Virus record (IMG/VR): IMGVR_UViG_3300045988_077302
Location: 1-41,356 of that record
Source of the DNA: a virus
Direction: 5' to 3' (one strand)
Length of the DNA: 41,356 nt
Position 1 is the first letter of the stretch. Each line of letters begins with the position of its first letter. The notes beneath the pieces are model-generated. The model saw only the letters and a list, made by a program, of their open reading frames with translations. It had not been told where the DNA came from and searched no databases. The position numbers and the translations under genes are program-made. Positions 16,149 through 20,447 of the stretch are shown one piece after another.

Positions 16149-16297
16149 CGGCGGCAGCGCCCCATGGCTCCGCCCTGCCTTCTCGGCATAATATAGGCGG
16201 TCTGTTTGGGACTCCTTACTTCTAAGGGGGCTTCACGACCGTCGATTTTTTTAACACACCTCTTGCCAGGAGATCACAGAAATGATATAATAAATTC

Positions 16298-16386
16298 GCT
16301 CGTATTATTTCATATATTTTTCTGGCGTATCAGAAGAGTATTCATGCAAAGCCGCTCAGTATCCCCATACACTGGGCGGTTTTTGT
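16298..16386 (+). ncRNA. Candidate small RNA 1 (promoter 16263..16291, terminator 16351..16386)
   Basis: Promoter is TTGCCA, a 17-nt spacer, then TATAAT with a TG extension (tgatataat). The terminator stem CCGCTCAG/CTGGGCGG is followed by TTTTT. There is no credible ORF between them. Confidence 0.4.
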
Positions 16387-16663: not shown

Positions 16664-16846
16664 TTACATCAACCGGCATTTGGTATCTGGCGATCGCTGA
16701 GTTAAAAACCACATAGCTGATATATCCACATCGATTACCATTTTCGCCATCTCGCGAGTCTCCTGGTATTTTGCATTTTTAGCCATCTGGGCATGGCGCT
16801 GGTAGGTCTCAATTATCTCAAAAAATAATTCATCTGTTCGGTTCAT
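16664..16846 (-). CDS. Hypothetical 60-aa protein downstream of the integrase
   Basis: Strong RBS AAGGAGAA upstream of the ATG. The product is hydrophilic and no motif was recognised. Confidence 0.6.
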   Translation of the reverse strand: MNRTDELFFEIIETYQRHAQMAKNAKYQETREMAKMVIDVDISAMWFLTQRSPDTKCRLM

Positions 16847-16929
16847 CTTTTCTCCTTCTTTCCCTTATGATTATATTTTACCGGTAATTAATATTAACCG
16901 ACCGGAAACTTAACTTAACGGTAAAACAA

Positions 16930-18321
16930 TTACAAAAAGATAATTTGATATTTCCGGTTCCGCCCAATACTCTTTGATACACGGATTTCCTTAATAATTG
17001 ACCGCCAGAAGGCCCTCTTTTCCTCATTGTTTAAATTATTATAGATGATCTCAAAATTGCAGTCCAGAACTTGCTTAAGCGGTTTTAGATTTTTTATCGG
17101 TTGTTCCATGTCTGGAAGGGCAGCAAGCTGTTCCTCATACTCCGCGCGGTCTTTTTTATATTCTTCCAGATTGATCACTTCATTCAGGTACAAATCCTTC
17201 AAACGGTCTAGTTTTCTGCGGATCTTATTCTTTTTTGCGCGATTATCAATTCTCTTGGCTTCCCCTGTCTCAAAATCTACCAGATAGCCGCTTAACTCTT
17301 CCCGGATGTGTTCTAATAAATATTCTTCAATCCTCATTTCTCGAATCTCACCGCCGTTGCTGCATTTTTTGTATGCACGGTACTGCAGGCATTCATAAGC
17401 AGGATATTTGTAGCGGTAGACTTTTCCGCTGGTCCTGCGGCTCACGACGTTAATGTGGCAGCCGCTCATTTTATGGCCGCACTCGTCACAAATCAGGATT
17501 CCTGAGAATATGTAGGGGTATTTTTGGCTGGAGCGTATCGTGCTGTTGTTGTCAAGAACACGTTGAATGTCCTGATACATCTCGTCAGAAATCAGGCGCG
17601 GACAGTAATTTTCGTTGCCGCGATAACGGCCGGTGTATTTCTCGTTTCGCAGGATACTGTTTTTAAGGTTCTGGATACTCATATTTATTCCGTGGTTTTC
17701 CCGCATGTAGTTTACGGTTTTGGCAAGCCCCTGTTCCCGATGGAAGTACTGAATACTATCCAACATCGCGGGTGCCTCGTCAGAAAAAACTAAATGCTTA
17801 TTTTGAATCATGTAGCCGCGCGGCACCTTTCCGGTGATAACCTCTCCATGAACTACCTTGTTGCGAAAGACATCGGCAACGCGCAGGCCGCCGTTCTGAG
17901 CTTCCAGCTCCGCCCATGTCATAGACTGAGCTACGAAGGCACGGCCGTAAGGGGTGGAAGTGTCAAAGTAGGGTTGGTCAATGGCTGTCCATGCAACATT
18001 GTACTTATCCAATATGACCTGAATATTGAGATAATGGCGCAGGCTCCTGAACCAGCGGTCTAATTTTGTGAATATGATGAGATCAACCAGGCCGGCTTTT
18101 ACATTCCCGATCAGGCGGGTAAAATCATCACGATCCAGCTTCTGGCCGGAGACGCCGTCGTCGATATAAGTGTCCTGGAGGACCATGTTCTGATGATCAT
18201 CAATATATTTAATTCCGCGTTCCTTCTGATCGCGAATGGAATCGCCGCGTTCAGCCTGTTCGTCTGAGGATACACGGATGTAGAGCGCTACACGCAGAAG
18301 GGCGGTCTGGGGCTTTGTCAT
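16930..18321 (-). CDS. int: Large serine recombinase (phage integrase)
   Basis: 463 aa from ATG 18321 (RBS AAGGAGAT). It has the resolvase catalytic motif VALYIRVSSDEQ, a Cys-rich zinc ribbon CDECGHKMSGC...YECLQY...C, and a C-terminal coiled coil. The track extension to 18522 has no RBS. Confidence 0.9.
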   Translation of the reverse strand: MTKPQTALLRVALYIRVSSDEQAERGDSIRDQKERGIKYIDDHQNMVLQDTYIDDGVSGQKLDRDDFTRLIGNVKAGLVDLIIFTKLDRWFRSLRHYLNIQVILDKYNVAWTAIDQPYFDTSTPYGRAFVAQSMTWAELEAQNGGLRVADVFRNKVVHGEVITGKVPRGYMIQNKHLVFSDEAPAMLDSIQYFHREQGLAKTVNYMRENHGINMSIQNLKNSILRNEKYTGRYRGNENYCPRLISDEMYQDIQRVLDNNSTIRSSQKYPYIFSGILICDECGHKMSGCHINVVSRRTSGKVYRYKYPAYECLQYRAYKKCSNGGEIREMRIEEYLLEHIREELSGYLVDFETGEAKRIDNRAKKNKIRRKLDRLKDLYLNEVINLEEYKKDRAEYEEQLAALPDMEQPIKNLKPLKQVLDCNFEIIYNNLNNEEKRAFWRSIIKEIRVSKSIGRNRKYQIIFL

Positions 18322-18409
18322 AATATCATCTCCTTGGTTAAGTGTATTAATTTTGGGTATAAAAAATACGCCCCTTGTCAGGACGCGTTGGAGATGATAT
18401 AATTTGTTT

Positions 18410-18495
18410 GCGAGACAGATTATATCTTCCGGTGCGTCCGGCAAGAGAAATCTATGTGAAAGGCTCTGGGAGTTGGTAGCTCCTGGGGCTTTTTG
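18410..18495 (+). ncRNA. Candidate small RNA 4, antisense to the integrase leader (promoter 18375..18403, terminator 18463..18494)
   Basis: Near-consensus promoter: TTGTCA, a 17-nt spacer, then TATAAT with a TG extension. The terminator is a 10-bp GU-rich stem followed by TTTTT. No + strand ORF is present. Confidence 0.45.
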
Positions 18496-18496
18496 C

Positions 18497-19252
18497 TTAC
18501 TTATTATGGGTGATAACGTCAAATGCTGATAATATTTGGTGTGCCAAATTAAAGGCCGTTTGATACTCTTTGCTATTAGTCTTAGTGGGTTTCGTAATTA
18601 AAGGAATCATAATACAAGGAGAACCGAAATTATTAACGGTTACTTTTATGTAAAGTGATTCTACTTTTTTCTTCTGTACCCTTTTTCCGGTAATACCTCC
18701 AGCAACAGCACCAAAACCGCCAAATATAGCACCGCCGATTAATGCCTGGCCGACACCACCGCTTGTAACAAGGCTATCATCTTCTAAAAGATCATAATTA
18801 AGCAAGTCATTAAATTCCAGCCATTCTTTATTTCCGACTTTTTGCTTGTTTCCGCCAATAAGTTTTTCAGCAGCTACAGACATTCCCAATGTACTAACTG
18901 CCATAAGTCCTTTAAACATTGATTTTCCGGCGCCATCTTTTTTACCATTAATAGGAACAGCACCGTTTATACGAAACATCTTATGCGGTTCGTCTATTTG
19001 AACCGGTCCTACTTGACGAGTGACTTTGATAGCGTTTTTATTGTTTTCAGCGACAGTCTGAACTCCAGTTTGTACTGCAGACCATACCTTGTTTACAACG
19101 GATTCATCAGTTTGGGCATCAGATACAATAGGAGTGGCTGTATTTATTTCTTCATTAGACAGCATATCGCTGGTAGGACAGCCACAATTGGGACACGCAG
19201 CTGCTTTGTCTGAGAATTCTTTTCCACACTCTGTGCATTTAATAAGTGCCAT
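18497..19252 (-). CDS. Zinc-ribbon protein with a glycine-zipper hydrophobic segment
   Basis: 251 aa. The N-terminus is CTECGKEF...CPNCGC and it contains GGVGQALIGGAIFGGFGAVAGGITG. RBS is GGGAGGAA. Confidence 0.7.
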   Translation of the reverse strand: MALIKCTECGKEFSDKAAACPNCGCPTSDMLSNEEINTATPIVSDAQTDESVVNKVWSAVQTGVQTVAENNKNAIKVTRQVGPVQIDEPHKMFRINGAVPINGKKDGAGKSMFKGLMAVSTLGMSVAAEKLIGGNKQKVGNKEWLEFNDLLNYDLLEDDSLVTSGGVGQALIGGAIFGGFGAVAGGITGKRVQKKKVESLYIKVTVNNFGSPCIMIPLITKPTKTNSKEYQTAFNLAHQILSAFDVITHNK

Positions 19253-19300: not shown

Positions 19301-19948
19301 TTATCTTAAAACATAATTTTGCAGTCGTTCAGGAAAATATCGTTCAAGAAATTCGTGATATTCTGCCCATGCAGAGTATTTTTCCTCTGGCTCAGATTCC
19401 AGTTCTATTTCATAGCCAAGCTCTTTTTCTGGAAAAAACATCAATTCCAATTGGTGTTCCGGTTCAGATGGTTTGTGCGTAGTATGAGCGATATGTTCAT
19501 ACCATCTTCTGTAATCCGACAAAGCTCTGTTTGATGCCTTATAGGATAATCCGAATAACTCATATATATGTCTGACTGTTCTACAATCATATTTATGAAT
19601 TAGTATTCTGGGAGCCAGAATATGGCTGGCAAACTCATTGGCCTCATCATCATTTTCTTTTGTATCCCCATTATGACTCAATAAAATGTGGCCCACTTCA
19701 TGCATTAGCGAAAAACGCTGACGGCGAATGTAAGGGAAAGAATCATTATAGTAGATTTTTCCTCTTAGCTTAAATGCATCATCACTTACTTTATAACATT
19801 CGCGCTCTTTTATTTCTGAAAGTTCAGAATACCTATATAGAGGTATCTTTAATTTTTTAATTACATCAATGCAATCAATAGGAAAATTTTTGATATTACA
19901 GGTTTCGTAGACATCTAAAATAATACGTGAAACCTCACAATGCTCCAA
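19301..19948 (-). CDS. immA: ImmA/IrrE-family zinc metallopeptidase (anti-repressor protease)
   Basis: 215 aa with a TTG start. It has the motif HEVGHILLSH followed by EANEFASHILAP, and lies directly downstream of the repressor gene. Confidence 0.85.
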   Translation of the reverse strand: MEHCEVSRIILDVYETCNIKNFPIDCIDVIKKLKIPLYRYSELSEIKERECYKVSDDAFKLRGKIYYNDSFPYIRRQRFSLMHEVGHILLSHNGDTKENDDEANEFASHILAPRILIHKYDCRTVRHIYELFGLSYKASNRALSDYRRWYEHIAHTTHKPSEPEHQLELMFFPEKELGYEIELESEPEEKYSAWAEYHEFLERYFPERLQNYVLR

Positions 19949-19962
19949 ACAAAATCACTCCT

Positions 19963-20292
19963 TTAATCATCATCGGATAACAAAGTTCTAATGATGTCCT
20001 GTTTTTGTTCGATCGTGAGTTTTTTTCCATTACGGGCAATAAGGCTTTGAATATCTTCATAGGTTGGCTCGTATACGGTTTGTGATGATCCTCTTGCCAT
20101 CTCGTCAAGTTCTTCAACTGTAATTCCTAATTCTTTACATATCGAAATTACGATATTAACACTTGCACCGCCAACACCTCTCTTTAATATCGAATAGAGT
20201 GTACTTTCGGATAAACCACATTTCTCTGCAAATGCCCGTTTACTCATTCCAGTCTCGGAAATTAGTTTTTCTAAAATTCTAGCTTTCTCCAT
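19963..20292 (-). CDS. XRE/CI-like phage repressor (ImmR-like)
   Basis: 109 aa. The HTH reads MSKRAFAEKCGLSESTLYSILKRG. It is divergent from the Cro-like gene. Confidence 0.85.
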   Translation of the reverse strand: MEKARILEKLISETGMSKRAFAEKCGLSESTLYSILKRGVGGASVNIVISICKELGITVEELDEMARGSSQTVYEPTYEDIQSLIARNGKKLTIEQKQDIIRTLLSDDD

Positions 20293-20418: not shown

Positions 20419-20447
20419 TTGACAATACACGCGAATGAGCGTATATT
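20419..20447 (+). promoter_or_regulatory. Rightward early promoter
   Basis: TTGACA (20419..20424), a 17-nt spacer, then TATATT (20442..20447). It is flanked by operator palindromes. Confidence 0.7.

Follow-up and report, generated by a model that had tools for sequence, protein, structure and literature searches.

A candidate antisense-RNA attenuator preceding integrase genes in phages of gut Lachnospiraceae

Antisense attenuators and the control of integrase genes

Attenuation driven by an antisense RNA is an established mechanism for the plasmid pT181 (PMC3753616) and for the RnaG/icsA pair of Shigella (PMC2879508). In pT181 (RNAI/II-repC), as in pIP501 (RNAIII-repR) and pAMbeta1, a small antisense RNA is transcribed from a promoter inside the sense leader, with an intrinsic terminator of its own at the end. 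In these plasmids, the leader on the sense strand forms an antiterminator that excludes a terminator located just before the ribosome site (PMC3753616, and established for these plasmids), pairing of the antisense RNA with the 5' part of the leader lets that terminator form, and mirror-image hairpins in the two RNAs allow loop-loop contact. RnaG is likewise a cis-antisense RNA that promotes premature termination of the sense transcript, and it has convergent promoters (PMC2879508). At one end of the mobile element Tn916, a terminator shields the genes of the element from incoming read-through, and the part of that report drawn on here describes neither an antisense RNA nor an alternative leader fold (PMC11658703).

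Among phages, the immunity RNAs of satellite phage P4 (CI RNA) and of P1/P7 (c4) are small RNAs that pair with a nascent leader and cause premature termination or a translation block. In the prgQ/Anti-Q system of Enterococcus plasmid pCF10, the sense transcript of a mobile-element gene is ended early through the action of a cis-antisense RNA. The int gene of phage lambda is controlled by cII activation of PI and by sib retroregulation through RNase III.

The locus described here, the leader of an integrase gene in a temperate phage, resembles the pT181/pIP501 type in having an antisense promoter that faces sense transcription and a predicted small, structured and terminated antisense RNA, together with a leader terminator, a predicted antiterminator whose 5' half would lie in the region paired with the antisense RNA, and mirror-image hairpins, termed P1 and P1'. 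It differs from that type in its targets, which are integrases and not a replication initiator under copy-number control, and in its phage rather than plasmid setting. No dedicated sense promoter was found here, the leader being the 3' UTR of the upstream gene, and an additional anti-SD overlaps the -10 box of the antisense promoter. The targets of prgQ/Anti-Q and RnaG/icsA are conjugation and virulence, respectively, their RNAs are unrelated to that described here, and neither system has an anti-SD. The RNAs of P4 and P1/P7 are, unlike the present one, processed from the strand of their own target, and control replication or antirepressor genes. As in lambda, Int would be made on infection and kept low when unneeded, through an RNA structure that depends on genome configuration; however, sib acts at the 3' end by mRNA decay, without an antisense RNA or a leader terminator switch. 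In full-text literature searches, no antisense attenuator acting on a phage integrase was found to be described. In the present case, attenuation would act on integrases, and the antisense promoter contains an anti-SD.

The integrase leader and its predicted antisense RNA gene

The window, i.e. the whole stretch of 41,356 bp analysed here (IMG/VR record IMGVR_UViG_3300045988_077302), is a complete temperate phage genome, the structural genes of which occupy about 33-41 kb and 0-14 kb. The analysis was computational and covered sequence elements, with their strand specificity and covariation, the two-state folding of the leader, and gene context. A four-gene lysogeny block lies on the minus strand, and includes an XRE-type repressor (19963-20292) and an ImmA-like metalloprotease (19301-19948). 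The other two genes of the block encode a Zn-ribbon protein of unknown function (18497-19252, stop codon 18497-18499) and a large serine recombinase of 463 aa, the integrase (int, 16930-18321; Pfam Resolvase 4e-24, Zn_ribbon_recom 8e-11). A repressor/cro-like switch region is flanked by two near-consensus promoters at 20419-20447 (plus strand) and 20757-20729 (minus strand), both TTGACA-17-TATATT and the latter with a TG. A search of GenBank phages returned no close relative of the window, only distant integrase matches.

The gap between the Zn-ribbon stop codon and the int ATG is 175 bp long (18322..18496, minus strand). It is at once the 3' UTR of the Zn-ribbon gene, the int leader and, as judged by the alignment of relatives, a conserved module. 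It is followed by the int ribosome site and start codon (18319..18335, minus strand), with the SD AAGGAGA at 18335-18329 and the ATG at 18321-18319. The int frame remains open for 67 codons 5' of this ATG, up to a TTG at 18522 (18322-18522, minus strand), but this is due to chance, as indicated by the conserved SD and ATG and by where the N-terminus of the recombinase lies. In seven viral contigs with integrases 92-100% identical, the stretch that can be aligned to the window starts at the int ribosome site and reaches the T-run of the antisense RNA gene described below; homology ends right past this T-run, and the upstream genes differ among the seven. The corresponding module in a prophage of Hungatella hathewayi DSM 13479 (locus L105, NZ_CP102274.1) is 93.5% identical to that of the window.

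A first-pass annotation of this DNA had proposed that the plus strand of the gap carries a promoter and a terminator defining an antisense RNA of ~85 nt, and all of these elements were recovered at the positions given. The putative promoter consists of the -35 hexamer TTGTCA (18375..18380), a 17-nt spacer, and the extended -10 box TGATATAAT (18395..18403), with TG at 18395-18396 and TATAAT at 18398-18403, and thus matches 11 of 12 consensus positions in addition to the TG extension. On the minus strand, the counterpart of the -35 hexamer lies in the loop of the leader terminator. The hairpin claimed to contain G-U pairs and to be followed by T5 is a predicted intrinsic terminator at 18462..18494, in which the arms GGCTCTGGGAGTT/AGCTCCTGGGGCT form a 13-bp stem with five G-U pairs (18462-18490) and T5 occupies 18490-18494. 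Given that T18409 and G18410 are conserved in at least 90% of relatives, 7 nt past the -10 box, G18410 was taken as the start, and the predicted sRNA would be ~86 nt in length (18410..18495), the whole of it being conserved as a unit. It would include a 5' hairpin, P1 (18417-18453), and a conserved single-stranded linker (about 18447-18461) between P1 and the terminator. The folding energy predicted for the RNA 18410-18498 is -37.9 kcal/mol (z = -4.7). The plus strand of the gap had been said to have no ORF; its only ones are two TTG-started frames of 34 and 41 aa, both of them without a ribosome site.

Rfam 15 covariance models, those of ctRNA and antisense families included, gave no match at the gathering score anywhere in the window and, at E values up to 10, only chance-level matches in 18000-18900. 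The gap region is, however, one member of an RNA family, which is absent from Rfam. A first pattern scan matched 74 viral loci and 34 genome loci, and a second matched more than 120 loci. After removal of duplicates and false matches, at least 137 distinct elements remained, from viral contigs and Lachnospiraceae genomes, and 120 representatives of these make up alignment A2. Since the search patterns used conserved motifs and the collected sequences are mutually related, the locus counts given here do not represent independent events. Nearly all named genomes belong to Lachnospiraceae or related Clostridia, and include Enterocloster, Hungatella, Lacrimispora, [Clostridium] symbiosum and Lachnoclostridium.

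The -35 hexamer located 17 nt from the -10 box is TTGCCA in 115 of 145 elements and TTGTCA in 15. Within the -10 box, ATGATATAAT is invariant in alignment A2; this is not an artefact of collection, because 51 of the 53 elements matched by a pattern that did not require the -10 box also have it. The predicted sRNA has a median length of 86 nt across the family (range 80-95). The linker, AAGAG-N-ATCTATGTGAAA (18447-18461, plus strand), is nearly invariant in alignment A2, and resembles a weak ribosome site followed by ATG-TGA, or ATG-TAA in some relatives.

Covariation in P1 and the sRNA terminator was scored on a MAFFT alignment that had not been fitted to any structure. The cells were 91.9% paired, as compared with 45-65% when the partners were slid, and double-change cells numbered 287 versus 101 +/- 13 in shuffles. 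Compensatory changes were found at 12 pairs for P1 and the terminator together, and at nine pairs for the sRNA terminator. One relative, L004, carries four double compensatory changes in the terminator stem, with the G-U pairs kept. The sRNA terminator has a mean ΔG of -15.0 on the plus strand versus -8.7 on the minus strand, the plus strand being better in 112 of 120 relatives, and on the plus strand its stems include 345 G-U pairs versus three A.C mismatches. The reverse holds for the leader terminator, the mean ΔG of which is -9.3 on the minus strand versus -3.1 on the plus strand. The minus strand gives the more stable fold in 118 of 120 relatives, and its stems there include 268 G-U pairs but not a single A.C mismatch. 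Hence, the two terminators are RNA-level signals, as a DNA palindrome or protein-binding site would lack such strand asymmetry, and the predicted structure of the sRNA covaries and is specific to the plus strand.

The genes located downstream of the module fall into 18 protein clusters. Representatives of nine clusters were scanned and all are integrases, of which six are tyrosine recombinases (PF00589) and three are large serine recombinases; across the collected loci, the full module always adjoins an integrase gene. In 26 of 120 family members (e.g. L011, L015 and L024), the stretch from the leader terminator to the int SD contains a perfect 16-bp palindrome, GTTGCGATATCGCAAC, which could be an operator or an RNA hairpin. 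These are loci with tyrosine integrases, and the palindrome is absent from the window.

On the upstream side, a co-directional ORF of at least 70 aa ends no more than 90 nt from the T-run in 83 of 118 loci, mostly at a distance of 1-13 nt, and only two of these loci have a clearly divergent upstream gene. The upstream genes encode accessory-type proteins of 39 clusters. No sigma-A promoter was found past the leader terminator. Just beyond the sRNA terminator, a search for a conserved sense promoter gave a score distribution near that of shuffles and no preferred position. A candidate minus-strand promoter inside the module, with the -10-like GATATAAT at 18426-18419, was rejected on inspection, its sole -35-like hexamer lying 14-15 nt away. 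As a co-directional gene ends close to the module and no int promoter was found, int would be reached by read-through. Thus, int would normally be the final gene of its transcription unit, entered by read-through under the control of the module. The dependence of int on read-through of a leader terminator, as proposed in the first-pass annotation, is therefore favoured by sequence comparison, with the putative terminator conserved and strand-specific and not followed by a sigma-A promoter.

Two predicted states of the leader

The minus-strand hairpin and U-run that had been noted ~40 nt before the int start form the leader terminator (18361..18386), which consists of a stem at 18386-18368, an A, and U6 at 18366-18361. 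An antiterminator that would exclude this terminator is predicted in the minimum-energy fold of the leader of the window. The 5' half of the latter (18415..18443, minus strand) lies wholly inside the stretch complementary to the sRNA, and the 3' half (18376..18407, minus strand), which is outside the sRNA, includes the anti-SD as well as the terminator's 5' arm and loop.

Minus-strand leaders of the 120 representatives, each starting opposite the T-run of the sRNA gene and ending with the terminator's 3' arm, were folded under three conditions; the values obtained are equilibrium predictions. In the free leader, the mean terminator probability was 0.035, with values below 0.2 in 115 of 120. 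When the nucleotides complementary to the sRNA were masked, the mean rose to 0.84, with values above 0.8 in 101 of 120, that for the window itself being only 0.52. Dinucleotide shuffling of the 5' part gave a mean of 0.45, and the native leader was lower in 117 of 120. The long hairpin predicted for the free leader has 23-33 pairs, except in one of the 19 seed sequences, where it has 14; in this hairpin, the 5' region pairs with the anti-SD and with the 5' arm, the loop and the first bases of the 3' arm of the terminator; in the window, 18443-18415 pair with 18407-18376.

A covariance model of the antiterminator was used to align 106 sequences. In this alignment, the antiterminator cells were 85% paired versus 39-50% with the partners slid, and there were 92 double-change cells versus 38 in shuffles, a number attained by none of 500 shuffles. 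In the outer helix, 96% of cells are paired; this helix is conserved without covariation, and its G-U pairs would be A.C mismatches on the plus strand. The inner part of the long hairpin, in which the -10 region pairs with 18415-18430 (18390-18430), is more stable on the plus strand in 96 of 120 relatives, and its 5' arm there lies upstream of the predicted sRNA start. In these models, a long antiterminator can form in the free leader at the expense of its terminator. The predicted sRNA start, 18410, falls in the apical loop of the antiterminator hairpin, and the sRNA is therefore complementary to exactly the 5' half. A leader peptide was rejected as an explanation, because the leader was found to have no AUG before the int ribosome site.

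A second layer of control would act on translation. The minus-strand complement of the sRNA -10 region, ATTATATCATCTCC (18390..18403), is a conserved anti-SD that can pair with the int SD/ATG, 18403-18390 matching 18333-18320 at 13 of 14 positions. The two segments form inverted repeat I4 (93% complementary), and their pairing is present in the minimum-energy fold. Across the family, the mean energy of the anti-SD:SD duplex was -13.1 kcal/mol for cognate pairs, -11.7 for non-cognate pairs and -5.5 for shuffled sequences, and the cognate pair was better in 89 of 114. Variants such as GGAGATGATAT, GGAATGATAT, GGATGATA and GAGAATGATATA occur in parallel at the anti-SD and SD sites. Predicted accessibility of the SD was 0.38 in the free leader versus 0.21 in the masked leader, and was higher in the free leader in 84 of 107. 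For the full-length leader of the window, the minimum-energy fold already includes the anti-SD:SD pairing when the sRNA is absent. One segment thus serves both as the -10 region of the sRNA gene and, read from the opposite strand, as the anti-SD of int.

The reading that we consider the most probable, with somewhat better than even confidence, is that the gap is a self-contained cassette which gates read-through into int by antisense-RNA-driven attenuation of the pT181/pIP501 type. Minus-strand transcripts of the upstream lysogeny or moron genes would enter the 175-nt leader. In a nascent leader on its own, the antiterminator (18443-18415 / 18407-18376) would sequester the anti-SD and, of the terminator, the 5' arm and loop; RNA polymerase would pass the U-run, and the int ribosome site would be left free. 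The near-consensus promoter on the plus strand would yield the 86-nt sRNA (18410-18495), which matches the complement of the leader without mismatch over its initial ~86 nt, a stretch that contains the entire 5' half of the antiterminator. Pairing of this sRNA with the nascent leader would allow the terminator stem (18386-18368) with U6 to form and transcription to stop ~40 nt before int. In transcripts that escape, the freed anti-SD (18403-18390) would pair with the SD/ATG. We infer that both RNAs are made, that their pairing shifts the fold during transcription, and that the biological timing is as follows: a genome that has just entered the cell would give a burst of Int while the sRNA is yet to accumulate, and Int would be silenced as the sRNA builds up, e.g. 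in a lysogen. The cassette thus probably keeps the integrase off except for a burst when the phage enters a cell. Points against attenuation are that the local hairpin P1' could delay formation of the antiterminator during transcription, and also the masked value of only 0.52 in the window, the anti-SD:SD pairing in its full-length leader fold, the plus-strand preference of the inner hairpin, the outer helix that does not covary, and the orphan sRNA gene described below.

That the sRNA opposes int, as suggested at first, is supported by the comparative and folding evidence, and the mode of action can be refined. The predicted sRNA starts at 18410 and heads away from int, without overlapping the int SD (18335-18329), and the arrangement of ribosome-site-occluding antisense RNAs of the IS10 RNA-OUT and R1 CopA type was not found. 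As it covers the 5' half of the antiterminator and not the int ribosome site, the sRNA would act by forcing termination.

Repression of int by the sRNA without attenuation, the leader terminator being constitutive, appears improbable. It would proceed by RNase III cleavage of the duplex, by collision of polymerases, or by pairing of the sRNA segment ATTATATCTTCC (18419-18430) with the int ribosome site. In agreement with such routes, the two promoters face each other and their transcripts would overlap along their whole shared length, and ATTATATCTTCC resembles the anti-SD, forming a duplex with the SD of -9.2 kcal/mol versus -6.2 for shuffled sequences. However, the sRNA:SD duplex showed no cognate preference (-9.2 vs -9.0, with the cognate better in 59 of 114), and direct pairing of this kind was rejected as the main mechanism for lack of a cognate signal. 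Moreover, a partly covarying antiterminator, the 5' half of which equals the footprint of the sRNA, would be purposeless if the terminator were constitutive.

The orphan copy, competing readings and wider meaning

The window contains a second, diverged copy of the sRNA gene at 16263-16384 (plus strand; sRNA 16298-16384). Its -35 hexamer is TTGCCA (16263-16268), and its TGaTATAAT has its last base at 16291. Next come a hairpin resembling P1, then the linker AAGAGTATTCATGCAAAG, and finally a predicted terminator (16352-16379) with T5. Exact match to the first copy is limited to 5 nt. It has no leader terminator, and no integrase lies on its left. This variant occurs in nine other contigs, never with an integrase, and a search for a full int-linked module matching it returned orphan copies only. 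Because the orphan exists without a leader terminator or an integrase, the sRNA may act beyond its cis target.

The nine loci in which promoter, P1 and terminator are kept without leader terminator or integrase would also suit a different reading, namely that the module insulates against transcription of the upstream accessory genes, that int is expressed in another way, for example through an antiterminator protein of the phage or from a promoter that went unrecognised, and that the sRNA is trans-acting and was placed there by chance. The strong conservation of the single-stranded linker, which is not required by cis-antisense pairing, points in the same direction, and Tn916 offers a known case of a terminator acting as an insulator at one of its ends (PMC11658703). 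Nevertheless, this reading is unlikely. The full module is always beside an integrase, despite 18 protein clusters and two unrelated enzyme families, the sRNA starts exactly between the antiterminator halves, and within the window the linker matches its cis site only, with no trans target.

The view that the inverted repeats of the gap are DNA sites, either the attP of the serine integrase or the operator of a dimeric regulator, and not RNA structures, has very little probability left. A large imperfect inverted repeat (18381-18440) does adjoin the serine integrase gene. However, homology to the prophage of Hungatella hathewayi (L105) ends at 16901, 29 nt past the int stop codon, which is the centre of another imperfect inverted repeat, TTTTACCGGTAA / TTAACGGTAAAA (16876-16887 / 16915-16926), and several prophage-derived contigs end at the int stop codon. 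The segment 16876..16926 is therefore the probable attP, and this break in homology, being downstream of int, excludes attP from the gap (18322-18496). In addition, the module also precedes tyrosine integrases, and its helices show strand-specific G-U pairs and compensatory changes. The reading of 18381-18440 as attP or operator was rejected, attP mapping to about 16901. Just past attP lies a 60-aa ORF (16664-16846, minus strand) with a strong ribosome site, AAGGAG, and no PHROG match, which is downstream of int only in the circular genome and beside host DNA in the prophage. It could encode a directionality factor or be an accessory gene.

Chance matches to promoter-like and terminator-like motifs were rejected on the comparative data as having next to no probability since, although simple consensus scans yield ~8 weak promoter-like sites per 3 kb by chance, the window has six matches of at least 11/12 versus 0.91 expected and three with TG versus 0.08 expected, and the elements are conserved and covarying in more than 100 relatives.

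Returning to attenuation, the cassette precedes many unrelated integrases in phages of gut Lachnospiraceae, and in Enterocloster, Hungatella, Lacrimispora and related genera it has moved between integrases of the tyrosine and serine types. It represents a new RNA family to be added beyond those in Rfam, which can be tested directly in culturable strains, and provides more than 100 natural sequence variants of an antisense attenuator, a type of part used in synthetic RNA circuits.

A bolder and rather doubtful extension is that the cassette is a portable one-shot pulse generator suited to any integrase type, with the sRNA acting also in trans between elements. If so, the sRNA of a resident prophage would silence the integrase of an incoming related phage, so that integration would be excluded by RNA much as incompatibility groups operate among plasmids. 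The shared contact point would be the conserved linker, the variable hairpins would set specificity, and orphan sRNA genes, such as that at 16263-16384 of the window, would be weapons or decoys. RNA-mediated interference between co-resident prophages is thus possible.

To our knowledge, little is known of the timing of integrase expression in temperate phages of gut Firmicutes. The cassette suggests a general, protein-free answer, in which an RNA circuit would sense whether the element has just arrived.
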